64,000 nt of DNA from an uncultured Woeseiaceae bacterium. GTDB taxonomy: Bacteria; Acidobacteriota; Vicinamibacteria; Vicinamibacterales; UBA823. The notes beneath the pieces were generated by a model that saw only the letters and a program-made list of their open reading frames with translations, was not told the DNA's origin and did no database searches. The translations under genes and the position numbers were made by a program. Below are positions 13,264 through 64,000 of the stretch, in pieces. The stretch covers positions 2,185 through 66,184 of the forward strand of contig CAZMUA010000002.1 in the NCBI GenBank assembly GCA_964569695.1. The letters run 5' to 3'. The first letter of the stretch is position 1, and each line of letters starts with the position of its first letter.

Positions 13264-13310
13264 CCCATCTTCCTTCTTCGTCAGAACAGAGTAGTAATGC
13301 TGCCGAGCAA

Positions 13311-13961: not shown

Positions 13962-14160
13962 ATTTTCCTCCTAGTAACCCCGAGTTGCCGCATTTGTCAT
14001 GAGTCTGAAACGTAAGTGGCCCAGACGTGCACGAATCATGGATTCTACCGTACTCAAGTGTGTATGCAATGATTCGCCCGTAAATTTCTTTGATAAAAAA
14101 TTTACACAAATGAAACGCTATTCATATGTGGTCGTGAATGTTTTGTCATATTATGAATGA

Positions 14161-15153: not shown

Positions 15154-15193
15154 TTGCTTAGCCGTTATGGAAGACTCTTATGCACTCGTAGGT

Positions 15194-16246: not shown

Positions 16247-16314
16247 GAATGGTCTCCCGTGTGTAAGTTGGTCATAAAAGAGTAGCGGTCTTCTTAGATA
16301 CGAAGCGCCTGATA

Positions 16315-16929: not shown

Positions 16930-17144
16930 AGTGATCTTGAAAAAAGCGATCTTCGTTGTGAATATCTTACCAAAACATTTTGCGATCGTATCACTAATGG
17001 TCTTCTGATTACGCGTGAGAGAGTCTCAAAGATTGTTTGGGTAGTTGACTCAGCTTGGATGAACAGGGTGGGGGGACGGCCACGGCCGTTTCCATTAGCA
17101 ATGCGTGTTTGATTAGGGTGTGACGAGTAACCGACCCTGGTTTT

Positions 17145-18956
17145 TCAACACGAGACGCACTTGTTGTTGTTTATTGCGCCAAGGCTCACTAATAAATCAA
17201 TTGTTTCTGGATATGGCTCGATTCGTTGCACGGGCCCATTCGCTAGATCTACTGTTGTTTGACCGTTCCTACTAACGAAGGTTACGTCAGCACCCTTCGA
17301 AACTAGGTAGTTGATCATCTCGTTGTCACCACGTGCAGCAGCATGATGTAGCGCTGAGTAGCCACGATGATCTCGTTCGTTGACATCAACCCCCAAGTCC
17401 TCAATTAGATATTTAACCGCGCGTAATTGGCCTGCTGGATGGTATCGGTGGGAATTGGCTGCGAAGCCAAAGCCATAACCAACACCTGCAGCAGCTTGGA
17501 GGGGCGTGACCGCTGGACCACCTAGTGGAACAGGTGGTAATCCGGACAAATCTTCAGTTGGCTGATTTCGTCTTCGACGTTCTGGTGTTTTTTGGGTTGG
17601 TAGGCTGAAGTCAGCACCTCGCGCAACGAGCAACCGCATTGCTTCGACGTCGCTAGCGTATGCGGCCCTCCAAAATACTGTTGCGCCTGTTTCGTTTACG
17701 TTTGACAGGTCAAAATTGTAACCAGAGTACCAAACCTTTTTCGTTAATCTCGCGTTAATGTCTGCACCCGCATCCAGAAATGCATCCATGAGATCTAAAT
17801 ACTCGATGCGTTGTTGTTTATAGGAGGTGGGTTGCGGGTAATCTGCCAACTGCGCATATTTGACATTCAGCACGGCATAGAGAGGCGTACCACCGGCTTC
17901 GCTCGCAATTGTGGGATCCCCCCCAGATTCAAGTAGATACTTGGCGAGATCGAAATGGCCATTGATTGTAGCAATGAGAAGTGGTGTTGTTCCGTCAGAT
18001 GAGGTCGCGTTAATATCTGCGCCACCTGCCAGTAGTGCCCTCACAGAAGCGGTGTGACCCTGTCGCGAAGCGAATAACAGCGGCGTTAGGCCACCTTGCT
18101 TACCAACGAGTTCCGCATACGAGAGGCGTGAGGGGCCTTCCGGCTCTTCAGCCGGCTCCTTTTTGCCTCCACCTGGAATAACCCATGCAAAAAAACGCAG
18201 CAAGAAATGCCTTTTTTTCTCTTCCGGTAACACTTCAGGTTGAGTTTCTTCCTGTGTGGCGCCTACTTCAGGTGACGCCTTTAAGGCCGCCTCCACCAAG
18301 GCCTTGCGTTCCTCTTCAACCCGCTTGTTGCGCTCAGTACGGGCTTCCCGAAATTCCTTGTCTACTTCAATAACGTCAACGGTGTCGCTTGCGATTTCCG
18401 GATCTGCAGCGTTGGCTAGTAAGGCTTCGATGGCTTCGGCGCGATCGTAAGCGGCTGCAAACATTAGTGCAGTTTGTCCGCGACCTGTTTCACGAGCGTT
18501 TACATCAACTCGACCAGCTATTAAGGCTGTGACTGCATCAGCGCTGCCAGATGAGGCTGCTAGCATGAGAGGAGTTACACCAGTGGTAGTTGCGACAGTG
18601 GCATCTGCTCCATTATCCAGAAACAGCTTTACAGTGTCAGCGTGGCCACTTCGACTCGCGAGGTGCAGTGGGTTATAGGCGTGAAGGCGCGTTGTTGCTC
18701 TCAGATTTGCACCGGCATAGAGTAGCATCTTCGCTGTGTCGAGCTGTCCATTCACTGCAGCCCAGTGTAGAGCTGTCATGCCGTCACCTTGTGCAGTATT
18801 CACGTCGGCCCCTTCTTGCAATAGGGACCGCACAGTGTTGTGATCACTATGCATCGCAGCATCGGCAACTGGTGACTCTAGAGCGGCATAAAGTAGGGGG
18901 TGAGCCTGTGCACTGATGCCTATAATGACGGCACCGAGTATCAGTCTATTCATCAT
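17145..18956 (-). CDS. Secreted ankyrin-repeat protein
   Basis: It has a signal peptide (MMNRLILGAVIIGISAQA) and many ANK repeats (e.g. GMTALHWAAVNGQLDTAKMLLYAGANL, TPLMLAASSGSADAVTALI, YSALHHAARGDNEMINYLVSKGADV). A charged Glu/Lys/Pro-rich insert splits the repeats. The track start at 18974 is TTG; I trimmed it to the ATG at 18956. Confidence 0.85.
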   Translation of the reverse strand: MMNRLILGAVIIGISAQAHPLLYAALESPVADAAMHSDHNTVRSLLQEGADVNTAQGDGMTALHWAAVNGQLDTAKMLLYAGANLRATTRLHAYNPLHLASRSGHADTVKLFLDNGADATVATTTGVTPLMLAASSGSADAVTALIAGRVDVNARETGRGQTALMFAAAYDRAEAIEALLANAADPEIASDTVDVIEVDKEFREARTERNKRVEEERKALVEAALKASPEVGATQEETQPEVLPEEKKRHFLLRFFAWVIPGGGKKEPAEEPEGPSRLSYAELVGKQGGLTPLLFASRQGHTASVRALLAGGADINATSSDGTTPLLIATINGHFDLAKYLLESGGDPTIASEAGGTPLYAVLNVKYAQLADYPQPTSYKQQRIEYLDLMDAFLDAGADINARLTKKVWYSGYNFDLSNVNETGATVFWRAAYASDVEAMRLLVARGADFSLPTQKTPERRRRNQPTEDLSGLPPVPLGGPAVTPLQAAAGVGYGFGFAANSHRYHPAGQLRAVKYLIEDLGVDVNERDHRGYSALHHAAARGDNEMINYLVSKGADVTFVSRNGQTTVDLANGPVQRIEPYPETIDLLVSLGAINNNKCVSC

Positions 18957-18970
18957 TGGCAACCATCCAA

Positions 18971-20347
18971 TCAAATTGACAGCGTGCCAGTACTGTCACC
19001 AAACGATTCAAGGTCGTCGCGTCCTAGTTTATGAAGTAGGGTCAGCATCACGTTCGCCATTGGGGTGCGGTCTTCTGTGATGACATGCTGGTTACCTTTT
19101 AGGTGGCCATTGGCATGACCCGCCAAAAATAGTGGACACCGTTTGTGATTATGGATGTTTGAGTTGCCCATTGGTGAACCGTAAACAACCATTGTTCGGT
19201 CTAGCAGACTCGCGTCTCCATCTGGTGTGTTCTTGAGTTTTTCAAGAAAATATGGAATCAAGCTGACATGGTACGTGTTGATCTTGGCAAATTCCAGCAC
19301 GCGGTCTTCACGTTCGCCGTGATGAGAGGCCGGGTGAAAACCCCGTGTTGTGCCGCTTTCAGGGTATACGCGCCCAGAGGCGTCGCGACCCATCTTAAAT
19401 GAGAAAACCCGCGTGAGATCTGACATGAAAGCCAAGGCTTGCAGATCGAACATAACCTCAACATGTTCGCGGAACGAATCCGGCACGCCGATTGGCGCTT
19501 CGGGTAAGTCACGTGGCGCACCGCTTGTATTCTGTGCTTCGATTTTTTGAATTCTTCGCTCGATTTCACGCACGTCCTCGAGATATTCGTTCAACCGGTG
19601 GCGGTCGCTTGGTCCCAGTGATTGTTGTAATTTGGCCACTTCACTAGTGATCCAGTCGAGAATGCTCTGGTCGGTTCGGCGACGGTTACTTCGCTCTTCT
19701 GGCGAGCCTCCGGCACCAAATAACAGGTCAAATGCGACTCGCGGATCACGCACCATCGGTAGTGGTTCAGTTGGCGCAGCCCAACTAATAGTGTCCGTGT
19801 AAACACAGGCGTAGCCGTACGCGCATCCGCCAGATTGGTCGACGTTCTCGATACAGAGTTGCATCGATGGGATTGCCGTTTCCTGTCCGAATTGCTGCGC
19901 GTAAAGTTGATCCATTGAAGTGCCAACGTAAACGTCTGAACCTTCCGTCTGTTTGGGGTGTGCTTGTGTCAGAAAGGTCGCGCTAGCCCGGAAGTGGTCA
20001 CCACCAGTCTCACCTAACGTGAATGCTTCAGCATTACGCACAGCAGTGTTAGTGATAATGGTTAGATGCTCGCGCATTGGGTCGAGTGGGAGAAGGCTCG
20101 TGGGCGTTAGATCAAAATCACTTCCTGCCGCACTTGGGGACCACAAATTGCGTTCGATGCCCACTTTAGTGGCACCGGCTGACCCATGAACCATCTCGAT
20201 CGCAGCAAGGCGAGTCGGGCTGGCCATTGCAGCTTGTGCCGGCAGGGCATGCGCCGGAATCATGGCGTCTAATAAGGGCATGGCCATTGTTACACCCATG
20301 CCTCGAAGGACCGTTCGCCGTGAAAGGTGCTTTTTAGTGAGGTACAT
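18971..20347 (-). CDS. DUF1552-family protein with a twin-arginine signal
   Basis: The N-terminus MYLTKKHLSRRTVLRGMGVTMAMPLLDAM is the characteristic DUF1552 start as I recall it. The ATG at 20347 is preceded by aggaga; the track start at 20371 is TTG. Confidence 0.8.
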   Translation of the reverse strand: MYLTKKHLSRRTVLRGMGVTMAMPLLDAMIPAHALPAQAAMASPTRLAAIEMVHGSAGATKVGIERNLWSPSAAGSDFDLTPTSLLPLDPMREHLTIITNTAVRNAEAFTLGETGGDHFRASATFLTQAHPKQTEGSDVYVGTSMDQLYAQQFGQETAIPSMQLCIENVDQSGGCAYGYACVYTDTISWAAPTEPLPMVRDPRVAFDLLFGAGGSPEERSNRRRTDQSILDWITSEVAKLQQSLGPSDRHRLNEYLEDVREIERRIQKIEAQNTSGAPRDLPEAPIGVPDSFREHVEVMFDLQALAFMSDLTRVFSFKMGRDASGRVYPESGTTRGFHPASHHGEREDRVLEFAKINTYHVSLIPYFLEKLKNTPDGDASLLDRTMVVYGSPMGNSNIHNHKRCPLFLAGHANGHLKGNQHVITEDRTPMANVMLTLLHKLGRDDLESFGDSTGTLSI

Positions 20348-20367
20348 TGCCTTTCTCCTCGCCTTGG

Positions 20368-22839
20368 TCAATGTTGAATTTGCTCCTGTTCCTCGACTGT
20401 CAAACTGTCCTCAAAAAGCGCTGGGCCGTCCGCTTGGCTCGTCCGGAACGCCGGACTATTAACAACGCCAAGTATATAAGCAGACACCCGGTTATCGTGC
20501 TCGGATGCTTCCTGCATGATCGCACGAATTGATGGCATGTCAAAGTATTCAATGCGGCGGCCGAGGGCATAGGACATCAGGTTTTCGGTAAAAGATGTCA
20601 AGAAGATTCGAGGACGAGCGAGCAGTGCTTTTCGCAGATCTGACGCACCGTTGAGTGGTGTGCCATCGTAGAGCTCACCCGAAGCGTCTATAAGGATGTC
20701 ATTGTCTCTGATACGCCAGGCGCCAGTGGGGTCAAAATTCTCAAGGGCTAGACCGAGAGGGTCGATAACTCGATGACACGAACTACACGCTGGATTTGAG
20801 CGATGTTCCTCCATGCGTTCGCGCAAGGTAAGTCGACGGTTGCCGAGAACAGCATCTGTGTCTTCGAGTTCTGGGACATTGGCCGGTGGTGGCGGTGGTG
20901 GACTACCGAGTAATACCTCCATAATCCACTTTCCGCGGAGTACGGGTGAAGTACGGTTGGCAAACGATGTGGAGGCCAGGAAGCTGCCATGTCCAAGGAT
21001 GCCACGGCGTTCACTGGGCAGGTCAACCTGCCGAAATTTGTTGCCAGTTACGTTTGGGATTCCGTAATGCTTCGCGATGCGTTCATTGGCGAAGGTATAG
21101 GGTGCATCGAGAAGTTCAAGGATGTTGCGGTCCTCGCGAACAAGATGTTCAAAAAAGAGTTCGGTTTCTCGACGTAACGCATGAGTAAGAGTACGGTCGT
21201 ATTGAGGGTATTGGATCGCATCTGGGTGTAACTTTTCGAGGTCCTGCAGGCGCAGATACTGTGCGGCAAACCTCGTGCCGAAGGCCTCGGCGCGTGAATC
21301 TGTAAGCATACGCCGTATTTGCAGTTCGACGGCATCTTGATCGTCGAAGCCCTGCTCAATCGCAAAGGTTATCAGCTCTTCATCCGGTATTGTGCCCCAG
21401 AGAAAGTAGGACAGACGAGAGGCCAGTTCGATGTCGCCTATTTGGTATTTCTCTCCTTCCGTCACACCAGATGGCACTTGTTCGAAGCGAAAAATGAATT
21501 GCGGGCTGGCGAGCAGTGCTCGGAGTGCGGTTCGAATGCCACCTTCAAAATCTTCTTCCTCGGCACCTTTTTGGTAAAAAGCCATCAGGCTGTCAACATC
21601 AACGTTATCGACTGGACGCCGGTACGCTTGCGAGGCGAGTCGCGAAATGATCTCCTGCGCACATGAGAGTTCTTCCTCAGGGGAAATGGGCCGGCAGCTA
21701 AAAATTACACGGCGGCTCGGGGTCTCTGAAACTCCCGTGATGTTGGAGGGGCCTCGTATGCTGAAGTCCCGTAGATGTGGGAGCGTCGTGATGCCACGCG
21801 CTCCACCGATCTCTGTGTCCGCCAAAGTGTGTTCGACTGGTTCAATGATGTCGTCGACCGGACCGTCAAAGTGCTTCAAAAACGCAGCGGCAACTCGACG
21901 AGGGCCGGCCTTGATGGCGATTGCATCTGTCTCGATATTCATACCGTTCGGGTCGGCTTCGTGCATAAAGGGATCGATGCTTAAGAGGGCCACTCGTTCA
22001 CCGTCGATTGAGATTTCAATTTGTTCCTGATCGCCAGCTGTCATGCCATACAAAGCACCCACCGGAGTAGGATGCATTTGCACCTTAAAGATGTAGTCGC
22101 CGTCGGCCGGAAAGGTATGCACGATCGCCACGCCACCTCTGGTGCCGAACGGTGCTCCTTCGGCCCTGCGCAGTTGTGATGCGGTGCGAGGGACTTTATA
22201 GTTAGCTTCACTTGCTGAGAGTTTCGGATCACCGACAGCGAGTCGACTGGTGTGGTCGGCTGCACGAAGAAATCCTTGGAGCAAAGTTGCCGAAGAGCCT
22301 TGGACGTCGGCTATATTATCGAATCCTTGACTTAGAGTGTCTGGAGGAAGGAACGCGTTGACGTCGATTTCTACTTTCAATAAAGAGCGCACGGTCCGGG
22401 TGTACTCAGCGCGATTGAGCCGTTGAAAGGTTCGTCTGCCTGGATTCGGCGAAGCGAGAGCCGTTTGATCCATGCGGTCTTCAAGGAGAGTAACAGCCGT
22501 TTCGATATCTTGCTGGTCTGGCCTGCGTGACCCCGGTGGCGGCATCATGCCTGCTGTAAGTTTTCGAATTACCTTTTCTGCGATTTCGGCGTTCTCACTG
22601 GGATGAGTCGCGTCAAAGTCCACCAATGACAAGTTTCCGCGTAGCGCGCGATCATTGTGGCACTGCAGACAATATTGACCGATGAGCTCGGTTGCCTGAG
22701 GTGAGTCTGACGCTGGAACTGTTTCAGGAGCCTGTATTGGTACCGCACCTGTCTGGATGGATGCCGTGGCACCGTTATGCGCCGTAATACCAACGCAGAA
22801 ACATCCAGCGATTAAGACGATCCAGGTAGATTTGCTCAT
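20368..22839 (-). CDS. Large secreted PSCyt/PSD-type protein (DUF1592/1595/1587/1588/1585 architecture) with c-type haem motifs
   Basis: It has a signal peptide, an N-terminal CLQCHNDR and a C-terminal ACSSCHRVIDPLGLALENFD. The 823-aa length and its pairing with a DUF1552 gene match the planctomycete-type gene pair as I recall it. Confidence 0.8.
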   Translation of the reverse strand: MSKSTWIVLIAGCFCVGITAHNGATASIQTGAVPIQAPETVPASDSPQATELIGQYCLQCHNDRALRGNLSLVDFDATHPSENAEIAEKVIRKLTAGMMPPPGSRRPDQQDIETAVTLLEDRMDQTALASPNPGRRTFQRLNRAEYTRTVRSLLKVEIDVNAFLPPDTLSQGFDNIADVQGSSATLLQGFLRAADHTSRLAVGDPKLSASEANYKVPRTASQLRRAEGAPFGTRGGVAIVHTFPADGDYIFKVQMHPTPVGALYGMTAGDQEQIEISIDGERVALLSIDPFMHEADPNGMNIETDAIAIKAGPRRVAAAFLKHFDGPVDDIIEPVEHTLADTEIGGARGITTLPHLRDFSIRGPSNITGVSETPSRRVIFSCRPISPEEELSCAQEIISRLASQAYRRPVDNVDVDSLMAFYQKGAEEEDFEGGIRTALRALLASPQFIFRFEQVPSGVTEGEKYQIGDIELASRLSYFLWGTIPDEELITFAIEQGFDDQDAVELQIRRMLTDSRAEAFGTRFAAQYLRLQDLEKLHPDAIQYPQYDRTLTHALRRETELFFEHLVREDRNILELLDAPYTFANERIAKHYGIPNVTGNKFRQVDLPSERRGILGHGSFLASTSFANRTSPVLRGKWIMEVLLGSPPPPPPANVPELEDTDAVLGNRRLTLRERMEEHRSNPACSSCHRVIDPLGLALENFDPTGAWRIRDNDILIDASGELYDGTPLNGASDLRKALLARPRIFLTSFTENLMSYALGRRIEYFDMPSIRAIMQEASEHDNRVSAYILGVVNSPAFRTSQADGPALFEDSLTVEEQEQIQH

Positions 22840-22906
22840 TCTTTTACCGACCGGTTTAGGTGCGTATCTATCGACATATTAATACCACTCGTTTGGACAA
22901 TGATTG

Positions 22907-23809
22907 TCACTCTTCGGTCATTGTCCTGGCGAGTGCCTTTTTAATGGCTGTCGTAGCCTGTTCAATCCTGAATTGCAGTAATTGTTTTCCAATGGCAATG
23001 GTCTCGGCTTTGTTCGCGATACTTAAGCCGTTAATCGTAGCCTTGCCAGCGGCCAGGCGCTCATTGTAACGAACGGTGCCTGGGTCGATAGTCATCATCA
23101 TAGCTGTAATGACGTAGTCGTCGTGGAGGCCTTCATTGATAGGCTCCGTGATACCAAGTTCGCGTTCCATGTAGTTGAACACTTCTCGATATTCGTAAAA
23201 CTCAGGAATATAGTGAACGATGGTTTGACCCCAGCGTTCATTCAGTGTTGCTGCGGTTTGTGCCATGCCGCGCTGGTTTCCACCGCTATCGCCGATCATA
23301 ACGATGTGTTTGAAGCCATGCGCCTTCAAACTGCTAGCGACGTCGTTCAAGACCATTTCAAATGTTTCGTTTCTGAGGCTAAGAGTGCCCGGATAGCGCA
23401 TGTGTCCCGAAGGTTCATCAAAGCTCCCTTCCGGGACGAGTTTTATGATTGGAGTACAGAGTGCCGTGCCGAGATCCCGTGCGATCCCTTCACAAGCGGC
23501 TTCCAAAACGTAATTGTGTTTACCGAGGGCTAGGTATGGGCCGTTCTGCTCGATGCCACCGGTCGGAATAATTACGGTGTTCTTACCAGATGCAAGAGCA
23601 TCACGAATTTCCATCCATGTCAGTTCCTCAATCCACACAGAATCAATGGCAGCAATAGGCCGCTCGGAGGCAAGGGCAGCTTGCACGCGTTTCTCCCGTT
23701 CTGCCTGTCGACGTGCCTGTTCTTCTGGGCTCAGAGTAGTGCCCTGTTGGGCGAAACTAAGAGAACTGAGGAGAACCGCCAGCGTGAGAACCGAGCAGCT
23801 TTTTCGCAT
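22907..23809 (-). CDS. Secreted creatininase-family (creatinine amidohydrolase fold) protein, divergent
   Basis: It has a Sec signal (MRKSCSVLTLAVLLSSLSFAQQ). IIPTGGIEQNGPYLALGKHN and MIGDSGGNQRG resemble the family blocks I recall as ...EQHGPHLP... and ...NGHGGN..., but with the His positions replaced. The ATG at 23809 is preceded by gagga. Confidence 0.55.
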   Translation of the reverse strand: MRKSCSVLTLAVLLSSLSFAQQGTTLSPEEQARRQAEREKRVQAALASERPIAAIDSVWIEELTWMEIRDALASGKNTVIIPTGGIEQNGPYLALGKHNYVLEAACEGIARDLGTALCTPIIKLVPEGSFDEPSGHMRYPGTLSLRNETFEMVLNDVASSLKAHGFKHIVMIGDSGGNQRGMAQTAATLNERWGQTIVHYIPEFYEYREVFNYMERELGITEPINEGLHDDYVITAMMMTIDPGTVRYNERLAAGKATINGLSIANKAETIAIGKQLLQFRIEQATTAIKKALARTMTEE

Positions 23810-23991
23810 GATGAATCCTCGCAAAGAACTGAAATAAATTGAATTACACCTGTAACCCTACCACACCTGATTGCAAGAATGAGTCTCGAATTCTCACTCT
23901 GATACACGCTTGCTTTAACCTAAAAATATGGGGCCAGGCGGACCGGTCCGTGTTGTCTGTCATTGACGACCCGGAGAGCGAGGAGTGCTCC

Positions 23992-25236
23992 TCAGAAAGT
24001 TTCCTGTTTAATTCTGAACGTGGTATCAAGCTCGGCGTCAGTCGTGAGCCCAACGACCCGCCGCGCGACGTATTCACCCAGCATGATTCCGTGTTTAAAG
24101 CCGTGTCCTGAGCCTGCACCCATCAGCCACACATTGCTCAACTCTGGATGTCGATCGACCATAAAGTGAGCATCGACGCTGTTAGTTCTAGGGCTGATAC
24201 GTGTTTCCAGAAGGGGTTGATTCGCTAAGGAGGGGAATGCGTTACTAGTAAAGGTTTGTATGCGGCGAACCTCTTCAGCCGTGACGGTTCTTTGATCCGT
24301 GTCCGGTTCGAGGCCTCCAGAGTCCCAATAGGGGCCAAGCTTTAAACCTTTACCTTCAATATTTGGGAAACCATAAACGCCTTTCGTTACGAACGTGGGA
24401 CAGTTAGGAAACACAAACTCACTACCATCCATTGGTGTACCCATGAAAAAGATCACTCGTCGGTTTAGCTTGAGTTTGTTTCCCAGGATTTCAGGGAACA
24501 TCTTTAGGTGCCAAGGGCCACAGGCAAAAACAAAACTTTGGGCAGAAACTATTTCTCCAGTTGAGAGCAAAATGGATTGTAGTTGGCCACCGGCGCGTTG
24601 ATTTGGGGTTCCTCGGGCGATTGTCAACTGGCCGCCAGCCTCTTTGAAAGCTTCTGCGACAGCGAGACATCCTTCCCGACATTTCAAGACACCGGTGCTA
24701 GGAACCCAATGACCAACAGTTGCTTCGTCAAGATTGAACTGGGGATATCGATATGCCAATTCATCGTACTCAACACGCTCGTTCTCCACACCAAGTCGGT
24801 CGAGTACACTTTTGGTGGCCCGCAGCGTGTTTGTCCACTCGCGACTCAAGGTGATCTGTCCGGTTGGATAGAGGAGGCGCCGTCCCCATTCTTGCTCGCG
24901 GGTCTTCCATCGTTTGAGCGCTTCGACTGCCCATCGTGAGTAGAGTTCCCGTTCACCGTAGCTGGCTCGGATTTGACGTGTCTCTCCTCCTGAACTTGAT
25001 CGAGCATTGCCTGGACCGTAGGCGTCAACGAGCCTGACGGAATGTCCCATCTCTTGCAGGTAGAGGGCGGTCCAGCCACCAAAGGCTCCAGCGCCGATAA
25101 CCACGACTTCTGGATTCTTGGATTGGAGAGCCGAAACGCGTCGGTCAAAGTAGGTGTTACTAGGAAGTGCGATTGAGCAGGCACTTCCACCCGTCACCTG
25201 CAGAAACGTGCGCCTCGTGAGGATGTTTTTCTTCAT
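23992..25236 (-). CDS. FAD-dependent oxidoreductase (DAO / sarcosine-oxidase-like) with a twin-arginine signal
   Basis: Tat motif LTRRTFLQV, dinucleotide-binding VVVIGAGAFGG, and C-terminal GAGSGHGFKHG. It is a paralog of 26129-27472. Confidence 0.8.
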   Translation of the reverse strand: MKKNILTRRTFLQVTGGSACSIALPSNTYFDRRVSALQSKNPEVVVIGAGAFGGWTALYLQEMGHSVRLVDAYGPGNARSSSGGETRQIRASYGERELYSRWAVEALKRWKTREQEWGRRLLYPTGQITLSREWTNTLRATKSVLDRLGVENERVEYDELAYRYPQFNLDEATVGHWVPSTGVLKCREGCLAVAEAFKEAGGQLTIARGTPNQRAGGQLQSILLSTGEIVSAQSFVFACGPWHLKMFPEILGNKLKLNRRVIFFMGTPMDGSEFVFPNCPTFVTKGVYGFPNIEGKGLKLGPYWDSGGLEPDTDQRTVTAEEVRRIQTFTSNAFPSLANQPLLETRISPRTNSVDAHFMVDRHPELSNVWLMGAGSGHGFKHGIMLGEYVARRVVGLTTDAELDTTFRIKQETF

Positions 25237-25405
25237 GGTGTGTCAAGGATGCCTTGAGAGAGTCTCAGTATACAACTGAATATCTTCCTGGGTTCTTGAG
25301 AACAGATATCGTGGAACTTTCAATATGGAAATAAACTACACGCGTAGGCTTGCCCACACTTTTTATACATGCTAGTTTCTGAGTTCGTCCGTTCTTGGAG
25401 AAGGT

Positions 25406-26119
25406 ATGACTAATACGACAGACAACAGAGTTGCGATTGTCACAGCATCAGGGAAAGGAATGGGGGCAGCGATAGCTGGCGAATTAGCAGCCAGTTCCTA
25501 CCAACTAGCGCTCATGTCGGTTTCTGGTGGGGCCGAGAAACTCGCCAGTGAGCTGAACGTGATTGGTTTGACTGGTTCGGTGACCGTTCCTGACGATCTT
25601 AAGCGACTTGTGGACACGACGATGGAGCGTTACGGGCGAATTGATGCGGTTGTGAACAACACTGGGCACCCGCCCGCAGGGCCGTTGCTTGAGCTAACGG
25701 ATGATGAGTGGCGGATAGGGCTGGACCTTGTTCTGCTTAACGTTATACGGATTTCGCGGTTAGTTACCCCAATAATGAAAAGCCAAGGTGGTGGTGCCAT
25801 TGTGAACATCTCGACGTTCGCAGCGTTTGAGCCGTCTTCGACTTTTCCAATTTCCGCGAGCCTTCGAGCCGCCCTTGGGAGCTTCACGAAACTCTATGCT
25901 GATACACACGCTCAGGATGGCATTCGAATGAACAATATTTTGCCGGGCTTTGTAGACTCATATCCCGTGTCTGATGATGTCGTTAAGCAGATTCCCATGG
26001 GTCGGTATGGTTCCGTACAGGAAATCGCGAAGACGGCACGGTTTTTACTGTCTGAGGAAGCCGGTTATATTACTGGTCAGAATATTCGAGTAGATGGTGG
26101 AATTACTCGTGGAGTGTGA
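25406..26119 (+). CDS. Short-chain dehydrogenase/reductase (SDR), no signal peptide
   Basis: N-terminal VAIVTASGKGMGAAIA (Rossmann glycine motif), NNTG, and SDR length of 237 aa. Confidence 0.85.
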   Translation: MTNTTDNRVAIVTASGKGMGAAIAGELAASSYQLALMSVSGGAEKLASELNVIGLTGSVTVPDDLKRLVDTTMERYGRIDAVVNNTGHPPAGPLLELTDDEWRIGLDLVLLNVIRISRLVTPIMKSQGGGAIVNISTFAAFEPSSTFPISASLRAALGSFTKLYADTHAQDGIRMNNILPGFVDSYPVSDDVVKQIPMGRYGSVQEIAKTARFLLSEEAGYITGQNIRVDGGITRGV

Positions 26120-26128
26120 AAGTCAATT

Positions 26129-27472
26129 ATGAAGAAACAGCAACCAGTTGAGAAAATCTCGCCCTCTTCGAAGGTCAGTCCTGTGACGAGGCGGTCGGTG
26201 TTAAAAGCAACAGCAGCTTCGTTCATTGGCTATCGGTTCGCCGGCGATGCGGCAACATTGAATGCTTCACCATCGGAAAGCAAGACGCGTTCCGGTTATC
26301 AGCAGCCCCACGTTGCTGTGATTGGAGCTGGTGGCTTTGGTGGTTGGACCGCGTTGAACTTACTCCGAAAAGGTGCGAAGGTCACTTTGCTCGATACATG
26401 GGGCCCTGGAAACGCTCGTGCTAGTTCTGGCTGTGAACGGCGAATGATTCACAGCCAACTGTATGCTGTGGGTAGCACAGGTTCAAATAAGGAGGTCTAT
26501 CGACCACTCTATATGGACATGATCACGCGCTCTCTTCAACTGTGGCGTGAAAACGAAGAACGCTGGAAACGGCAATTATATTTTCCATGTGGGTCATTAA
26601 CGCTTCAACCTGAGGAAGCCCCAAATGGCAGGGAAGCCCTTGCTTATATGCGTGAGCGGGGGACGGCAGTAGAGGAGCTCTCATTGCAGGACTTAGAGAG
26701 TCGGTACCCTCAAATCAATTTAGAAGGAGTGTCGTGGGGATTACTCGATGTTGATAGTGGATATTTGCGGTCACGGGTTGCATGTCAAGAGGTCTTTCGA
26801 GGATTTCTTGAAGAGGGAGGTGAGTACCGGCAGGTTGCTGTCAAAGCTCCTGAGATAGAAGGTGGTGGACTTGATAGCCTCAGTCTATCCGATGGTTCTC
26901 AGCTATCGGCTGACCACTACATCTTTGCGTGTGGGCCATGGCTTGGTCAGATGTTTCCAGGCACGATTCGAATCCGTGCGTCTCGTCAAGAGGCATTCTT
27001 CTTTGGAACCCCAGTTAACGATCATCGGTACGATGATAAACACCTGCCGATTTGCTTAGACGGCACTCGAAGTCCCAGCGCTGCTGTCCTTCCGGATGGC
27101 GACTTTCGCGGACTGTTAGTTGAAGGAGGACCTCCACGAGTAAGGATTATTAATCCGACTACTGAAGACCGTGGTCCAACACCGGAGCTACTGGCTTTTC
27201 ATCGCGAGTATCTGGCTTTTCGTTTTCCAGGTATGAAAGACGCGCCATTGCTTTCGATGAGAGTGTGTCAATACGAAAACAGTGATGATCAGAACTTTGT
27301 CATTGATCGACATCCTGAGGCGGAGAATGTGTGGCTTGTGGGTGGGGGTTCTGGCCACGGATTCAAGCACGCACCAGTCATTGGGGAGTGGACGGCTGAT
27401 ATGGTCTTTGGGGATAAGGCCGTTGAACCTTTGTTTGGGCTGCAACGTTTCAGAAGGCGACGGGCAGTCTAA
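26129..27472 (+). CDS. FAD-dependent oxidoreductase (DAO / sarcosine-oxidase-like) with a twin-arginine signal
   Basis: Tat motif VTRRSVLKA, then VAVIGAGGFGG and GGGSGHGFKHA. It starts 9 nt after the SDR gene. Confidence 0.8.
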   Translation: MKKQQPVEKISPSSKVSPVTRRSVLKATAASFIGYRFAGDAATLNASPSESKTRSGYQQPHVAVIGAGGFGGWTALNLLRKGAKVTLLDTWGPGNARASSGCERRMIHSQLYAVGSTGSNKEVYRPLYMDMITRSLQLWRENEERWKRQLYFPCGSLTLQPEEAPNGREALAYMRERGTAVEELSLQDLESRYPQINLEGVSWGLLDVDSGYLRSRVACQEVFRGFLEEGGEYRQVAVKAPEIEGGGLDSLSLSDGSQLSADHYIFACGPWLGQMFPGTIRIRASRQEAFFFGTPVNDHRYDDKHLPICLDGTRSPSAAVLPDGDFRGLLVEGGPPRVRIINPTTEDRGPTPELLAFHREYLAFRFPGMKDAPLLSMRVCQYENSDDQNFVIDRHPEAENVWLVGGGSGHGFKHAPVIGEWTADMVFGDKAVEPLFGLQRFRRRRAV

Positions 27473-27664
27473 GGCGTTTAGGTTCTGATGATTGCAACCA
27501 CGATTGCTGGCGAAAACATGCCCTAAAGAATTATTCCTCAGTGGGATTGTCTCGCGCTGCCAGCGGGTGTAGTATCAACCGGTCTTAGATGTCAGCGAGT
27601 GAGTGAAATCTCGAGGTGTGGACTCGTGAAACTTGGTCATCGTTTATTAAGGTAGGAGTAAGGA

Positions 27665-29035
27665 ATGTCACAAAACCTTTGGTTAAATCGAAGAACGTTC
27701 ATTAGGAATGCTGGAATGACGGCATTGGTGGGCGCCGCAAGTTCGGGAAATTCCCTAGCATCTCCAATGACGAATCTTCCCTCGGGACAAACGGGCAGCA
27801 CCACGTACGATTTTGACACTGTGTATGATCGGACCGGCACCAATAGCGTTAAATGGGATTCTGCGATTGCTCGATATGGACGCGAGAACATTGATGTTGG
27901 CATGGGTATCGCCGACATGGATTTTCAAGCTCCACCATGCATCACTCAAGCTCTTGCAGAACGCCTCAAGCATGAAAACTGGGGCTACATGAGTACGCCT
28001 CGGAGTTTCTATCAGCAGATTGCCGACTGGGACATGAGGAGAAATGGTCTTGAGGTAGACCCTGAGTCCATCACACTTTCGGACGGTGTCCACCCAGCAT
28101 TGATTGCAGCCCTGAAGGCGGTTTCGCCACCTGGAAGTAAGGTGCTTCTGACGACGGCTGTGTACAGTGGTTTTTATATGGACCTACGTCAGAGTCGGAC
28201 TCTTGAAGAAAATAGTCCGATGATTGTGGAAAATGGTCGCTATCGCATTGATTTTGATGACTTTGAATCTCGGATGAGTCACGACACCGATGCGTTGATT
28301 CTTTGTAATCCACAGAACCCAACGGGCAACTGCTGGTCGGAAGAGGATTTGTTAAGGTTGGGGCGGATGTGCCTTGAGCATCGCGTGGTGGTTCTGTCTG
28401 ATGAAATTCATTGCGATTTTGTGATGAAGGGCCAGAAGTATACGCCATTTGCTAGTTTGCCCGATAAGGAGGTCGTAGATAACAGCATTACCTTCAAGGC
28501 AGCCAGTAAGAGTTTTAGTCTTGCGGCCATGAAGATTGCCTGGTTCTTTTCCACGAATCCTGAGTTGCTTGCGCTGGTTCGTGCGCAACATCGAGCCAAT
28601 ACGAATTCGCTGGGTGTGGTGGCGAACCAGGGAGCTCTGACTGACGAGGGCGCGGACTGGTTAGACCAGGTGAATGCCTACATTGACGGGAACCATGATT
28701 TTGCTGAGCAATACATTCGAGAAAACCTGCCAGGAGTGGAATATACAAAAGCGCAGGGCACATACCTTGCGTGGCTTGACATTGGCGGAGTCGCTGAACG
28801 CCTTGACGCAAAGCGATTAGCTGAGGAGGCTACGGCGAACAGTGAAACGGGTCGACCAGTTTCTCCAGAGACTATCGTCGGAAATTGGTTGATCGAAAAT
28901 GCCAAAGTCCAGTTGAATGCTGGGTCGTCGTATGGACCAGGTGGCGAGAATCATATGCGGATGAATGTAGCCACGTCTCGTCAAACACTTAAGCTGGCGC
29001 TGGATAATATGGCGGCTGCTTTAAACGACCTGTAG
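27665..29035 (+). CDS. PatB/MalY-type PLP-dependent C-S beta-lyase (class I/II aminotransferase fold) with a twin-arginine signal
   Basis: The N-terminus MSQNLWLNRRTFIRNAGMTALVGAASSGNSLA is a Tat signal. It is followed by YDFDTVYDRTGTNSVKWD, the hallmark start of PatB/MalY enzymes, and SKSFSLAAMK (PLP-Lys region). Confidence 0.8.
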   Translation: MSQNLWLNRRTFIRNAGMTALVGAASSGNSLASPMTNLPSGQTGSTTYDFDTVYDRTGTNSVKWDSAIARYGRENIDVGMGIADMDFQAPPCITQALAERLKHENWGYMSTPRSFYQQIADWDMRRNGLEVDPESITLSDGVHPALIAALKAVSPPGSKVLLTTAVYSGFYMDLRQSRTLEENSPMIVENGRYRIDFDDFESRMSHDTDALILCNPQNPTGNCWSEEDLLRLGRMCLEHRVVVLSDEIHCDFVMKGQKYTPFASLPDKEVVDNSITFKAASKSFSLAAMKIAWFFSTNPELLALVRAQHRANTNSLGVVANQGALTDEGADWLDQVNAYIDGNHDFAEQYIRENLPGVEYTKAQGTYLAWLDIGGVAERLDAKRLAEEATANSETGRPVSPETIVGNWLIENAKVQLNAGSSYGPGGENHMRMNVATSRQTLKLALDNMAAALNDL

Positions 29036-29062
29036 GCTTGTCAGAATACTGCATTTAATAAG

Positions 29063-29095
29063 AAGGTCCGGCTCTGAAGAGGGCCGGACCTTTTT
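29063..29095 (+). terminator. Rho-independent terminator after the C-S lyase gene
   Basis: Stem aaggtccggc(t)c / g(g)gccggacctt with a 10-nt loop, followed by ttttt, located 28 nt after the stop codon. Confidence 0.8.
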
Positions 29096-29266
29096 GGTAC
29101 CATACCAGCCAGTAGGCCGGTTACCGTCCCCACACCTTTAAAGCTATAAAATGGAACGGCTCCGTGGTAACCGGTGTATTCTGTCTGCTCCTGTGGACAT
29201 CTGACAGAGGTTTCCACCGGTAGTCGTGCTCGGCATAACCAAACACACTTGAGGGGAAAGTTTCAG

Positions 29267-30820
29267 ATGAATAAGTCTAAGTCGATGTTGGGCCTGTCCA
29301 TTATTGCTGCGATTTTTCTTATTCCCTCATCCACAGCAGCACAAGAACCCGTTTACTGGGACATCGTCGATGACATTAGGTCCGAAGGGTTTGACAACTC
29401 TCACGTGATGGAGAGCGCGAGCTATCTGTCCGATGTCATCGGCCCACGTTTCACCGGTTCTCCCAACATGCGCCAAGCACAAGATTGGGCTTTGGAGCGC
29501 ATGGTTGAATTCGGTCTCTCTAGCGTTGAGAAGGAAGCTTGGGGTGAGGAGACCGTGGGTTGGGAGATTCAACGAGTGTCTGTGCACATGACTGTACCAG
29601 ATTACCAGATGGTGATTGCCTACCCATTCGCCTTGACTCCTGGCACGAGTGATCCCATCGTGACGAACGCTGTTATCGCGACCATCCAGAGCTCTGAAGA
29701 TTTCGATCGGTATCGCGGTAAGCTCGACGGAGCTGTCGTGTTAGCCACGCCACCGATGCCCATGAGCCCACGCTTCACACAAGACGCGTTCCGGCACGAC
29801 GAGGAATCGCTAGGAGTCTTTGAAACCGAGGGCATTGACCTCTTGATTCGCCGCCATGCGAGAGGCCAGATCGAGCAATCGAGCTTTCGACGGGAGGATA
29901 TTTCTGCTGACGAAGTTGAAGAGTTCTACAAGGTTGAAGGGGTGGCTGTGGTGCTGATGGCGAGCATCGGAAGTGATGGAACTGTGTATGCGACCGGACA
30001 TCCGACGACTCGGAACAGACGAACCCGCGCAGGAGTCCTGAGCGCACTACCAACACTCGCCGTTGCGACGGAGCACTATAATCGTATCTACCGGATTCTC
30101 GAGCGCGGCATCCCAGTCACAATGGACGTCGACGTTCGTATCGGGCTCGATGAATCAGACCCGACAGGCTACAACATCCTCGGGGAAATTCCTGGAACTG
30201 ACCTAGCCGATGAAGTCGTGATGATCGGTGCGCACATGGATTCCTGGCACACCGGCACTGGCGCTACTGACAACGCGAGTGGTGTGTCCGTTGTACTCGA
30301 GGCAATGCGTATTCTTAAGGCTATCGGCGCACAGCCACGGCGCACGATTCGCGTAGCGCTCTGGAGTCAGGAAGAGCTTGGCCTCAGGGGTTCTCGGGGC
30401 TACATCCGACACCACTTTGGAGAAGATGGTGTCTACACGCCTGACTACGATAAGTTTTCTGTTTATTTCAACATGGACAACGGCACAGGCCAGTTCCGTG
30501 GCGTCCACACTCAGGGCAACGCCCAAGCGACACCGATCCTACAAGCCTGGATGACTCCGTTTCATGACCTACAGGTTAAGACAATCTCTCTCTTCAGTAA
30601 CACGGGAACCGATCATCTGTCGTATAACAGGGTGGGGCTACCCGGGTTTCAGTTCATCCAAGACCGGATCGACTACCGAGCAAGAACCCACCACTTCAAC
30701 ATGGACGTCTACGATAGACTCCTTCCACGCGACCTGATGATTAACTCGGTAGTCATGGCGAGCTTCGCCTATCACGCCGCGATGAGAGAGGGAACGTTCC
30801 CGCGGCCCCGTACAGACTAA
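29267..30820 (+). CDS. Secreted M28-family metallo-aminopeptidase
   Basis: It has a signal peptide (MNKSKSMLGLSIIAAIFLIPSSTAAQ) and Zn-ligand blocks GAHMDSWHTGTGATDNASG and WSQEELGLRGS. The ATG at 29267 is preceded by gagggga. Confidence 0.8.
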   Translation: MNKSKSMLGLSIIAAIFLIPSSTAAQEPVYWDIVDDIRSEGFDNSHVMESASYLSDVIGPRFTGSPNMRQAQDWALERMVEFGLSSVEKEAWGEETVGWEIQRVSVHMTVPDYQMVIAYPFALTPGTSDPIVTNAVIATIQSSEDFDRYRGKLDGAVVLATPPMPMSPRFTQDAFRHDEESLGVFETEGIDLLIRRHARGQIEQSSFRREDISADEVEEFYKVEGVAVVLMASIGSDGTVYATGHPTTRNRRTRAGVLSALPTLAVATEHYNRIYRILERGIPVTMDVDVRIGLDESDPTGYNILGEIPGTDLADEVVMIGAHMDSWHTGTGATDNASGVSVVLEAMRILKAIGAQPRRTIRVALWSQEELGLRGSRGYIRHHFGEDGVYTPDYDKFSVYFNMDNGTGQFRGVHTQGNAQATPILQAWMTPFHDLQVKTISLFSNTGTDHLSYNRVGLPGFQFIQDRIDYRARTHHFNMDVYDRLLPRDLMINSVVMASFAYHAAMREGTFPRPRTD

Positions 30821-31683
30821 GAGATTGGTGTACTTGGTTCAGATGGCTCGAACACTACGTTGACTTGGCCGGTCCCAGAACTGCCAAAGTAATCCCCAAT
30901 GATCTCTCCAGAACCTTCGTAAGTATCCCAGCCCAGTACTCCAAACAGGTGGGCCGTATCGATCATGCCTCCTTCACCGAAACAGCGGTCTCGGTAGTCC
31001 GGTAGCATGGCAAGAAACTCTTTTATGCGTCCGGTTTGCCAGAGTTCCAGCACGCGCAGGTCAACTTGGCGGTTGAACTCCGTGTTGACTTCATTGATGC
31101 CTGCAGCCGACAGGTGGTTCGGCCAGAACTGATGCGACAACGAACCGCTTGCGAGTACTGCTACTCGACGATCGGACTCCCGAATTGCATCGGCCACCAC
31201 TTCGCCAAACTGGCGACCCTCCTCAATACTCGCAAATTGATTGCCTGCGATACTCAGAACACGGGCGGAGCCATCTGCATTCATATGGTGCATCGGAATT
31301 AGTGTGCCGTACTCAAAACCCAGACCAGGCACCTGGTGCGCCATGACCCGAAGGTTGCGTGCATTACCGAGTTCGGAAATTTTTTCTGCCAGTTCTGGAT
31401 CACCTCTGAAGTGATAGTCCATGCCGTTCAGAAAGTGCGGCAATTCGTGGCTGGTGAAGGTGCCGTCGTGCTCGGCGTTAGCGTTGAGGTGGAATCCTTG
31501 GTTCACGACCCAATGGATATCAAAAATAAGATAAGTATCAACCTTGCGATCATGTGCACGTCGCCCGATCTCGACGAGGCCATCGATTGCATTTTGACGA
31601 ATCCCTTTAAATTTCTTTGAGTGTTCAGAAAGCCAAATCGACGGGACGTGTGTGATTTTCGCGGCTAACACGATTTCGCCCAT
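30817..31683 (-). CDS. hpaD: 3,4-dihydroxyphenylacetate (homoprotocatechuate) 2,3-dioxygenase, LigB-type
   Basis: It aligns nearly end to end with my recollection of E. coli HpaD/HpcB (LAAKITHVPS..., VAVLASGSLSH, GEGGMIDTAHLFG, SSGTGQVN-VF). It is adjacent to hpaE and hpaF. Confidence 0.9.
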   Translation of the reverse strand: MGEIVLAAKITHVPSIWLSEHSKKFKGIRQNAIDGLVEIGRRAHDRKVDTYLIFDIHWVVNQGFHLNANAEHDGTFTSHELPHFLNGMDYHFRGDPELAEKISELGNARNLRVMAHQVPGLGFEYGTLIPMHHMNADGSARVLSIAGNQFASIEEGRQFGEVVADAIRESDRRVAVLASGSLSHQFWPNHLSAAGINEVNTEFNRQVDLRVLELWQTGRIKEFLAMLPDYRDRCFGEGGMIDTAHLFGVLGWDTYEGSGEIIGDYFGSSGTGQVNVVFEPSEPSTPIS

Positions 31684-34659: not shown

Positions 34660-35553
34660 TTGGTGAAACTTTTAAGTTTTGAAATTGCATCCAAAGCATC
34701 ATTTGGCGTAATCGTTCAGGATGGTGTTTTGGAACTAGCGGACCGATTGGGGAGTGAGGTGCACTCCGTTCAATCACTCTTCGAGTTGCAGGCGCTTGGG
34801 CTGGTCCAGGAGTTGATTGAACATTCAGAACCGGACCACTCTCTAGACGCTATCGAATTTCTACCGCCAGTGCCCACTCCTCAGAAGATCTTCTGTGTTG
34901 GAGTTAACTACACCAACCGCAATGAAGAGTATAAGGATGAGTCAACGCTTCCGAAATACCCAAGTATCTTTATGCGGACGCCTGGGTCATTCGTTGGGCA
35001 CCACGGTTCCATCGCTCGTCCGCCGGAATCCAACAAACTAGACTACGAAGGTGAGATTGCTATTGTAATTGGAATCGGGGGACGTCGAATTTCTCAACAG
35101 GATGCTGCACGGCATATTGGCGGCTTGACCTGCATGAATGAGGGTACGATTCGGGATTGGACACGGCACGGAAAATTCAACGTCACTCAAGGGAAAAACT
35201 TTGACAGAACGGGGTCGTTTGGTCCGTGGATTGTGACAGGCGATGAATTTAGTAGTTTTGAAAACCTTAGTGTGACCACTCGGGTCAACGGAGAAATACG
35301 ACAGAACGATTCCACGGCCAACCTGCTATTTCCATTCAGCTATCTAATTTCCTATATTTCGACATTTTCGGAACTGGTTCCAGGAGATGTCATTGCGACA
35401 GGGACTCCAACAGGTGCCGGTGTTCGCTTTGATCCGCCAAGGTATCTTGAACCGAACGATCTACTTGAAGTTGAAGTGTCGGGAGTAGGAACGCTAGTAA
35501 ACCGTGTTGTTGACGAAGCTGTCCGTAATCCGCTCAGTGGAGTTAAAGAATGA
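34660..35553 (+). CDS. Fumarylacetoacetate hydrolase (FAH) family protein, HpaG-like single catalytic domain
   Basis: Carries the FAH-domain blocks KIFCVGVNY, DYEGEIAIVIG and GDVIATGTPTG. The start is TTG at 34660 or GTG at 34663, after tgggag. Confidence 0.8.
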   Translation: MVKLLSFEIASKASFGVIVQDGVLELADRLGSEVHSVQSLFELQALGLVQELIEHSEPDHSLDAIEFLPPVPTPQKIFCVGVNYTNRNEEYKDESTLPKYPSIFMRTPGSFVGHHGSIARPPESNKLDYEGEIAIVIGIGGRRISQQDAARHIGGLTCMNEGTIRDWTRHGKFNVTQGKNFDRTGSFGPWIVTGDEFSSFENLSVTTRVNGEIRQNDSTANLLFPFSYLISYISTFSELVPGDVIATGTPTGAGVRFDPPRYLEPNDLLEVEVSGVGTLVNRVVDEAVRNPLSGVKE

Positions 35554-63788: not shown

Positions 63789-64000
63789 CTTTGGTCCTTT
63801 CCGCAACCAAAAGTCGTTTGAAATTATAGCCGAATGCCTTATCGTGGTTCGGCTTCATGAATTCCACTTCTAATACATAAGTTATTGTTGCCACTACTCT
63901 CCGTTATTGTTGTTCTCCCGCAAGTTCCGTGAGTGTATTTGCGAGTGAACGGAGGCGTGACGCACCCCCTGGCAATAAATTGGCATCATCGTTCAATTCG

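Follow-up and report, generated by a model that had tools for sequence, protein, structure and literature searches.

The 64,000-nucleotide stretch of DNA analysed here (contig CAZMUA010000002.1; hereafter the window) contains, at 12823-30820, an island of about 18 kb dense in genes for exported proteins, and this island is likely a mosaic of three independently inherited units. The first unit would be a cassette of a creatininase-fold variant, a DUF1592 protein with haem-c and PSD domains, a DUF1552 protein with a twin-arginine translocation (Tat) signal, and an exported ankyrin-repeat protein. The second would consist of two flavoproteins similar to monomeric sarcosine oxidase (MSOX), a short-chain dehydrogenase/reductase (SDR), and a PatB-like pyridoxal phosphate (PLP) enzyme, which appear to be neighbours only within a genus-level lineage; the third would be an M28 peptidase in a variable slot. 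A preliminary description of the part from 22907 to 30820 had joined the creatininase-like protein, the flavoproteins, the SDR, the PLP enzyme, and the peptidase into one extracytoplasmic module for trimming peptides or amides and deaminating, oxidising, or cleaving the products. That claim is not supported by the synteny, the indels, and the uneven transcript cover reported below.

The individual observations behind it fared better. All six open reading frames (ORFs) were confirmed at their coordinates, and their families were confirmed by Pfam and NCBIfam. Five of the six carry N-terminal export signals, which are of the twin-arginine type in both flavoproteins and the PatB-like enzyme and of the Sec type in the other two, the creatininase-like protein and the M28 peptidase. 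The motifs TRRTFLQV, TRRSVLKA, NRRTFIRNAG, EQNG, and DSGGN all stand verbatim in the translations. Only the SDR lacks a signal, with its Rossmann (nucleotide-binding) motif right at its start. The remark that such families are normally cytoplasmic applies to four of the five signal-bearing families and fails for M28 peptidases, which are normally secreted.

Export signals were called, using a simple classifier for hydrophobicity and twin-arginine (RR) motifs plus inspection, in 13 of the 14 consecutive non-membrane ORFs at 12823-30820 and in 7 of the 35 in the rest of the window (Fisher p = 3e-6). This enrichment is more than chance, and it places the left edge of the island about 10 kb beyond the left boundary of the preliminary description. 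The host genome is that of a free-living marine member of the Acidobacteriota, Vicinamibacteria-like: DNA of the window was recovered nearly intact in many sea-water metagenomes, and the named homologues came from metagenome-assembled genomes (MAGs) of Acidobacteriota and Vicinamibacteria.

Synteny and indels of the island

The clearest single result on the mosaic structure is a pair of indels in locus L091, whose DNA is otherwise colinear with that of the window and 87-94% identical to it in nucleotide sequence. The segment 16998-23890, holding the ankyrin, DUF1552, DUF1592, and creatininase-variant genes, is missing there as one block, and unrelated DNA stands in place of 29166-30824, which holds the M28 gene. 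A tRNA scan of the window found none, leaving the cassette indel without an integration-site clue. Another locus, L010, keeps the creatininase variant, flavoprotein 1, the SDR, flavoprotein 2, and the PLP enzyme, without an M28 gene at that position. The slot 3' of the PLP gene was variable, being occupied by the M28 gene in the window, by small membrane and thioredoxin-like ORFs in L091 (11510-12848), and by an unrelated 211-aa gene in L010.

A scan of a one-genome-per-species collection with an alignment of the creatininase variant yielded at least 578 loci, and the neighbours within 10 kb were examined for the best 80. Most of these 80 loci were from Gemmatimonadota (among them Candidatus Palauibacter and Longimicrobiales) or Acidobacteriota; one was from a Planctomycetota MAG. 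The DUF1592-DUF1552-ankyrin trio was found in 35-38 of the 80 (DUF1592 in 35), and in L034, L037, and L060 it follows immediately 3' of the creatininase variant and in the same orientation, just as it does in the window. None of the 80 had a relative of the flavoproteins (the DAO family), the SDR, the PLP enzyme, or the M28 peptidase within the same distance.

The neighbourhoods of the PLP enzyme were compared in 90 loci, 45 of them of at least 8 kb, and varied widely. Only four of the 90 contained DAO relatives, all with at least 85% identity to the PLP enzyme of the window; two of these (L009 and L092) have the PLP gene followed by flavoprotein 2, the reverse of the window order. Relatives of the exported M28 peptidase occurred within 10 kb in 7 loci, at only 26-42% identity. 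Recurrent neighbours included pyrroloquinoline quinone (PQQ) dehydrogenases accompanied by a small cytochrome c in 13 loci, sulfite-oxidase-type molybdoenzymes (PF00174) in 7, and a PtaA-like transaminase in 2. Where the GC content was high, naive ORF calling produced spurious antisense ORFs, and an apparent neighbour cluster of 11 loci that ran antisense to the PLP gene was discarded.

Because of this synteny and the L091 indels, the island reads as a mosaic of a cassette, a lineage-specific neighbourhood of flavoproteins, SDR, and PLP enzyme, and a variable slot. A single conserved six-gene operon is ruled out by the creatininase-variant loci, the PLP loci, and the L091 indels; the comparison across genomes that the preliminary description had proposed thus found that the six genes are not co-inherited as a conserved operon.

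Cofactor enzymes with export signals

The PatB/MalY-type C-S lyase is encoded at 27665-29035 on the plus strand (PF00155, TIGR04350). It scored 334.2 bits against TIGR04350 (PatB C-S lyase), 6 bits below the cutoff of 340; an insertion of about 22 residues at approximately 376-400 probably accounts for this narrow shortfall. It aligns over its full mature length with Bacillus subtilis PatB (6QP3, E = 5e-78), as well as with further C-S lyases of known structure, and the PLP lysine K282 (ASKSF), D246 (DEIH), N215/N218, and R432 (C-terminal RMN) are invariant. The predicted Tat signal covers residues 1-32 (nucleotides 27665-27760), with LNRRTFIR at residues 7-14 and, by inspection, a hydrophobic (h-) region and an AxA-type cleavage site (NAGMTALVGAASSGNSLA followed by SP, that is, cleavage between SLA and S).

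This signal is strongly conserved. Among the best 120 homologues (61-95% identity, 439-465 residues), LNRRxF[LI][KR] was found at the same position in 115; the other five are 439-residue calls from an internal Met18 on short contigs. In 28 diverse homologues down to 61% identity, R9, R10, and F12 are invariant and the h-region varies; across the best 120 homologues it stays uncharged. Because the RR pair and F are invariant while the h-region varies, this pattern is the signature expected of a functional Tat signal. Independent metagenome loci agree: of the 79 whose N-terminus could be read, reaching down to approximately 53% identity, 78 retain the RR motif. Two metatranscriptome contigs run across the ATG and the stretch of the gene that encodes the signal, namely 27597-27937, which starts 68 nucleotides before the ATG, and 27646-27972. 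In four marine metatranscriptomes, the word depth of the PLP gene was 3-22, the best of the region, and that of the DAO and SDR genes was approximately 0 in most bins, with a maximum of 2.6. A start-codon artefact was rejected, given the conservation of the RR motif and the transcript cover of the extension. The preliminary description had considered that conserved downstream starts in orthologues might remove the signals, but the signals are conserved in orthologues and transcripts run across the PLP start codon.

The lyase belongs to a clade of PatB-like enzymes that always bear a twin-arginine signal, and the copy in the window stands alone and is separately transcribed. The clade comprised more than 500 loci in sea-water and soil metagenomes. 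As judged from their conservation, the export signals of the PLP enzyme and the creatininase variant are well supported as genuine, and those of the flavoproteins are probable.

As far as is known, characterised PatB/MalY-type lyases are cytoplasmic. The window enzyme shares with PatB (6QP3), Escherichia coli MalY (1D2F), and Treponema denticola cystalysin (1C7N) full-length homology (6QP3), the PLP lysine in SKSF, the Asp of DEIH, and the Arg of RMN, but differs in its 48-residue N-terminal extension with the conserved Tat signal and in the insertion of about 22 residues. The solved C-S lyases align from chain residues 1-16 to query residues 26-52 and therefore have no counterpart of the RR motif. 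Export of folded PLP enzymes does have precedents: PvdN and PtaA of Pseudomonas pyoverdine maturation are exported by Tat with bound cofactor and are active in the periplasm (PMC6206403). The suggestion that Tat suits enzymes that fold around FAD or PLP before transport is thus mechanistically sensible and has these two PLP enzymes behind it. Both resemble the lyase in being PLP enzymes with twin-arginine signals; however, they are siderophore tailoring enzymes, PtaA being a transaminase of a HisC-like branch, whereas the window enzyme is a PatB/MalY-type beta-lyase without siderophore context, from a clade found mainly in Acidobacteriota of sea water and soil. The preliminary description had regarded periplasmic PLP C-S lyases as undescribed. 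As to exported PLP enzymes in general this was too broad, but for the PatB type it agrees with our search of the full-text literature, in which no description of an exported lyase of this type was found.

A second PLP enzyme with a Tat signal (MALSRRAFVQQLG...) is encoded at 59849-60994 on the minus strand. It is related to PtaA (NF051461, 198.6 bits, below cutoff) and lies two genes from a SorA/SoxC-like molybdoenzyme with a Tat signal (62622-63806, minus strand); relatives of the PtaA-like gene adjoin the PatB-like gene in L136 and L143. The PtaA-like and SorA-like Tat proteins imply that the organism encodes canonical-type Tat substrates. No tat genes were found within the window.

Flavoprotein 1 (23992-25236, minus strand) and flavoprotein 2 (26129-27472, plus strand) both belong to PF01266 (DAO) and share 35% identity. 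For both, the nearest NCBIfam model is N-methyl-L-tryptophan oxidase (MTOX) and the nearest solved structure is MSOX, and the scores lie below the cutoffs of NF008425 and TIGR01377 (197 and 166 bits against 257, and 150 and 127 bits against 480, respectively). The predicted Tat signals cover residues 1 to about 26 in flavoprotein 1 (TRRTFLQ) and residues 1 to about 42 in flavoprotein 2 (TRRSVLK). The signal of flavoprotein 1 is kept in the orthologues of L010 and L091, and the RR motif of flavoprotein 2 is kept in close orthologues. In an exhaustive search of cluster representatives for the flavoprotein 2 family, 76 sequences were full-length; 42 of these had an N-terminal extension, 27 with a clear RR signal, and the rest begin at GxGxxG. 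At the position of the covalent-FAD cysteine of MSOX, which we take to be Cys315, flavoprotein 2 has Cys (RVCQYENS) and flavoprotein 1 has Ser (RISPRTNS). The two proteins thus share with MSOX/MTOX (1EL5, 7EXS, 2UZZ) the PF01266 fold, the N-terminal GxGxxG, and, in paralogue 2, the covalent-FAD cysteine; they differ in having extensions of 40-60 residues that bear Tat signals, in the Ser of paralogue 1, and in their sub-cutoff scores.

The SDR gene (25406-26119, plus strand) ends 10 bp upstream of flavoprotein 2. The closest solved relative of the SDR is 4O6V (E = 3e-80), an uncharacterised structural-genomics entry. When aligned with FabG, the SDR shows SxxxR in place of the catalytic YxxxK, as does 4O6V. 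The SDR may be cytoplasmic or could, in principle, be exported as a Tat hitch-hiker.

The M28 gene lies at 29267-30820 on the plus strand (PF04389, 112.6 bits). Its listed ORF opens at an upstream GTG (from 29174), and the likely start is the ATG at 29267, which is followed by a textbook Sec signal (MNKSKSMLGLSIIAAIFLIPSSTAAQEP). The co-catalytic zinc-ligand motifs HMDSW, TDNASG, QEELG, MDNG, and TDHLSY are present on inspection of the translation. It is a secreted aminopeptidase of the usual kind, and its gene occupies a variable slot.

The creatininase-fold variant and its cassette

The creatininase-fold variant (22907-23824, minus strand) heads a cassette of four minus-strand genes that reaches 17145. 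Its probable start is the ATG at 23809, followed by a predicted Sec signal (MRKSCSVLTLAVLLSSLSFA, with cleavage before QQ), and a hydrophobic N-terminus with an AQQ-type site at its end was found in 111 of 120 homologues. The protein scored 114.8 bits against PF02633 (cutoff 31.3). Its AlphaFold2 model has a pLDDT of 78, and the best 26 Foldseek matches in the PDB are all creatininase-family entries (TM 0.5-0.6) and the sole significant matches; they include entries of the E122Q metal type.

Creatininase has a binuclear metal centre whose ligands we take to be Glu34, His36, Asp45, His120, and Glu122; a search for these residues in open-access literature text did not find them. Relative to Pseudomonas putida creatininase, only Glu34 is kept, and the other four positions read H36 to N, D45 to H, H120 to S, and E122 to G. 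The preliminary description had noted that His-containing blocks of the family were replaced and that the metal site might differ, and the alignment bears out the replacement. E92, N94, H103, D179-S180-G181-G182-N183, and H234 are invariant across the subfamily. Over 120 homologues with 46-94% identity, tandem-duplicated forms included, there is essentially no variation in the blocks E-[QP]-N-G...G-K-H-N and G-D-S-G-G-N (GDSGGN in 126 of 127 domains). Because the blocks are essentially invariant among these homologues, the replacements do not represent decay. The score against TIGR04448 (creatininase) was 56.1 bits with a cutoff of 235, and the scores against the MftE and IolN equivalog models were also far below cutoff. 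As aligned, the protein is a member of the fold family in which the defining metal site of creatininase is not kept, and with only Glu34 retained it would not be a creatininase in mechanism.

The candidate equivalent of the catalytic His178 is H234 (GLHDD), and E92, H103, D179, and H234 may form a mononuclear metal site. Presumably, Glu34, Asp45, and His120 jointly ligate metal 1 in creatininase; the corresponding positions in the variant are Glu92, His103, and Ser180, all invariant, and metal-2 ligand positions are Asn and Gly. Ser180 within GDSGGN is reminiscent, in its sequence, of nucleophile/oxyanion motifs of serine hydrolases. It is conceivable, though rather unlikely, that a Ser-His-acid site has replaced the metal centre, which would make the protein a periplasmic hydrolase that works without metal and serves as enzymatic partner to the DUF1592/DUF1552 pair. 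C111 and C123 are also invariant in the subfamily, consistent with a disulfide outside the cytoplasm. Tandem two-domain forms of approximately 460-530 aa (P0122-P0126, P0148, and P0197) keep ExNG...GKHN and GDSGGN in both domains. The variant is thus like creatininase (P. putida 1J2T/1V7Z/3A6x; PF02633 members MftE, ArfB, and IolN) in its Pfam match, predicted fold, Glu34, and H234, and unlike it in the four replaced ligands, the Sec signal, the two invariant cysteines, a coiled N-terminal helix, the tandem-duplicated forms, and its genomic linkage to DUF1592, DUF1552, and ankyrin genes. A literature search for interpretations of sponge or Gemmatimonadota creatininases found nothing relevant.

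The second gene of the cassette (20368-22839, minus strand) encodes a multidomain DUF1592/PSD/PSCyt protein (PSD2-5, PSCyt1/3) that bears a CxxCH haem motif as well as a Sec signal. The third (18971-20371, minus strand) encodes a DUF1552 (HXXSHH) protein with a twin-arginine signal (HLSRRTVLRGMG), and the fourth (17145-18974, minus strand) encodes the exported ankyrin-repeat protein. Two of the junctions in the cassette (17145-23824) are 4-bp overlaps, one of them between the ankyrin and DUF1552 genes, and the third is a gap of 67 bp. The DUF1552 protein is 62-69% identical across loci of Gemmatimonadota, Acidobacteriota, and the one Planctomycetota MAG, and a search with its sequence against solved structures found no homologue. 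Pairs of PSCyt/PSD and DUF1552 genes occur in Planctomycetes and Verrucomicrobia, where a 2017 study called their function unknown (PMC5615132). The window genes have the same domain architecture and pairing; they differ in forming a specific, highly conserved orthogroup with an exported ankyrin protein, to which the creatininase variant is added in approximately 45% of loci.

The left part of the island also encodes a cytochrome c' (12823-13329), a DUF1554 protein (13311-13961), a SoxA/TsdA-like dihaem cytochrome c (14161-15153, plus strand) whose match is far below the family cutoff, an exported protein of approximately 350 aa (15194-16246, minus strand), and an exported DsrE-like protein (16323-16910, minus strand). 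The 15194-16246 protein is internally repeated ('AVLPLPEDLKADATVV...') and had no Pfam or NCBIfam match. Its family adjoins the Tat-signal PLP lyase in 11 loci (relatives were found in L006, L009, L092, L093, L116, L128, L135, L145, and L151) and also forms tandem copies beside sulfite-oxidase-type genes. The DsrE-like protein is 82% identical to a second one 42 kb away (58786-59388, minus strand), each lying among exported, partly sulfur-related genes. A promoter and terminator scan of 16800-31000 gave counts not above those of shuffled sequence. The remaining genes of the window serve the catabolism of histidine, homoprotocatechuate, and hydantoin/oxoproline-type compounds or encode transporters and additional exported proteins. 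One of them (35550-37460, plus strand, 636 aa) fuses an N-terminal MarR-type DNA-binding domain to a group II PLP decarboxylase domain; downstream of it come the genes for hydantoinase/oxoprolinase A and B and for an SNF-family transporter.

Interpretation and implications

We infer the following course for the exported cofactor enzymes. The flavoproteins would take up FAD (covalently in paralogue 2) and the lyase PLP at K282, all in the cytoplasm, and the folded proteins would cross the membrane via Tat, by analogy with PvdN and PtaA. Once in the periplasm, the lyase would act on S-substituted L-cysteines by beta-elimination, yielding pyruvate, ammonium, and a thiol or persulfide. On chemical grounds, a beta-lyase would suit a compartment without free cofactor because, unlike in a transaminase, PLP is regenerated in each turnover. 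N-substituted or secondary amino acids are the usual substrate range of the MSOX/MTOX family, and the periplasmic flavoproteins would oxidise such compounds. Coupling between the enzymes is likewise conjectural.

It is improbable that all six genes form one pathway, in which the M28 peptidase and the creatininase-like protein trim peptides or amides, the flavoproteins oxidise the released amino compounds, and the lyase cleaves them. Such a pathway would account for adjacent exported enzymes that all act on amino or amide compounds, for the five of six genes together in L010, for the survival of the adjacency of the PLP enzyme and flavoprotein 2 through rearrangement, for the exported M28 genes near the PLP gene in 7 loci, and for an exported RidA (imine/enamine deaminase) near the PLP-flavoprotein 2 pair in L009. 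This RidA/YjgF protein (17556-18032 of L009; PF01042) has an N-terminal signal or anchor and would suit periplasmic PLP-lyase or amino-acid-oxidase chemistry. But the 80 creatininase-variant loci without relatives of the other genes, the presence of DAO in only 4 of the 90 PLP loci, and the absence of both the cassette and the M28 gene as indels from L091 all argue against it, as do the use of both strands, the gaps of 170-230 bp, and the unequal transcript cover. A relocated classical creatinine pathway, leading from creatininase through creatine to sarcosine and its oxidation by the MSOX-like flavoproteins, was rejected as scarcely credible. A creatininase-family gene does adjoin two MSOX-like genes, and hydantoinase A/B genes are present elsewhere in the window; however, the 49 window ORFs of at least 150 aa yielded no creatinase (M24), four of five metal ligands are replaced, the TIGR04448 score is far below cutoff, the flavoproteins score below the equivalog cutoffs, and none of the 80 creatininase-variant loci has a DAO gene alongside.

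Fairly unlikely is periplasmic mineralisation of organosulfur compounds, in which the exported lyase would free thiol, persulfide, sulfite, or thiosulfate from cystine, S-conjugates, or S-sulfocysteine, and a neighbouring DsrE-like carrier, SoxA/TsdA-like cytochrome, SorA-like sulfite dehydrogenase, and rhodanese would oxidise what is released and feed the electrons into the respiratory chain. Consistent with this, the window holds the two exported DsrE-like proteins, the SoxA/TsdA-like cytochrome, and the Tat-signal SorA-like protein; in 7 loci, the PLP gene has a PF00174 molybdoenzyme in its vicinity; L009, L091, and L092 have DsrE together with a SoxA-like cytochrome, L003 has rhodanese and sulfatase, L001 has gamma-glutamyl transpeptidase, and both L003 and L008 have an M19 dipeptidase. 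The links are nevertheless loose (7 of the 45 loci of at least 8 kb, several kb apart), the other frequent neighbours of the PLP gene are the PQQ dehydrogenases with cytochrome c (13 loci) and family-less proteins, and the SorA-like and SoxA-like matches are far below family cutoffs. The sulfur-related exported neighbours suggest cysteine-derived substrates, as a lead and not a result. Very unlikely is a further alternative, in which the enzymes act in or at the cytoplasm and their N-terminal extensions are either artefacts of annotation or membrane anchors that stay uncleaved. The ORF listing was mechanical, the h-regions of the flavoproteins are weak and have no clear AxA site, and about half of the flavoprotein 2 family has no extension; against this, the RR pair of the lyase is invariant to approximately 53% identity while the h-region varies, transcripts cover the extension, the only PLP homologues without RR are the 439-aa internal-Met calls on short contigs, and the invariant C111 and C123 of the creatininase variant are consistent with an extracytoplasmic disulfide. 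Even an uncleaved anchor would leave the domain outside the cytoplasm.

Several points tell against the mosaic of independent units and the export and loss of metal ligands described with it. The PLP enzyme lies near the DUF1592-DUF1552-ankyrin trio in 5-6 loci (L007, L135, L141, L145, and L160) and near the creatininase variant in 5 loci (including L100-102 and L163), and through this recurrence the units may be loosely connected in function. The adjacency of the PLP enzyme and flavoprotein 2 outlives rearrangement (window versus L009 and L092), which could reflect a real functional link that a mosaic underrates. Regarding export, Tat dependence and periplasmic location are predictions from sequence; the signal of flavoprotein 1 is confirmed only in close orthologues and the wider family, and both flavoprotein signals have weakly hydrophobic h-regions, that of paralogue 2 being broken by an Arg (Gln in orthologues). 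The depth of metatranscriptome contigs reflects expression poorly, and part of it may stem from DNA. As for the creatininase variant, the register of H120/E122 is ambiguous by two residues between two HMMER alignments.

The mosaic structure carries a lesson of method: in genomes rich in periplasmic proteins, apparent clusters of exported enzymes should be tested for synteny before being interpreted as pathways. The creatininase variant, with its at least 578 loci in a one-genome-per-species collection, is routinely annotated as 'creatininase family protein' or 'creatinine amidohydrolase' although it is without the metal ligands, and metabolic reconstructions that derive creatinine use from it are probably wrong. 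Its linkage to the DUF1592-DUF1552-ankyrin cassette offers a rare experimental handle on gene pairs of this kind (PMC5615132). Of value beyond this island is the recognition of a large clade of PatB-type lyases with Tat signals that is transcribed in the ocean. If their export is true, the short list of Tat-exported PLP enzymes, represented by PvdN and PtaA, would extend from siderophore tailoring to catabolism, and C-S cleavage of dissolved organic sulfur or nitrogen compounds would be placed outside the cytoplasm in abundant, uncultured Acidobacteriota.

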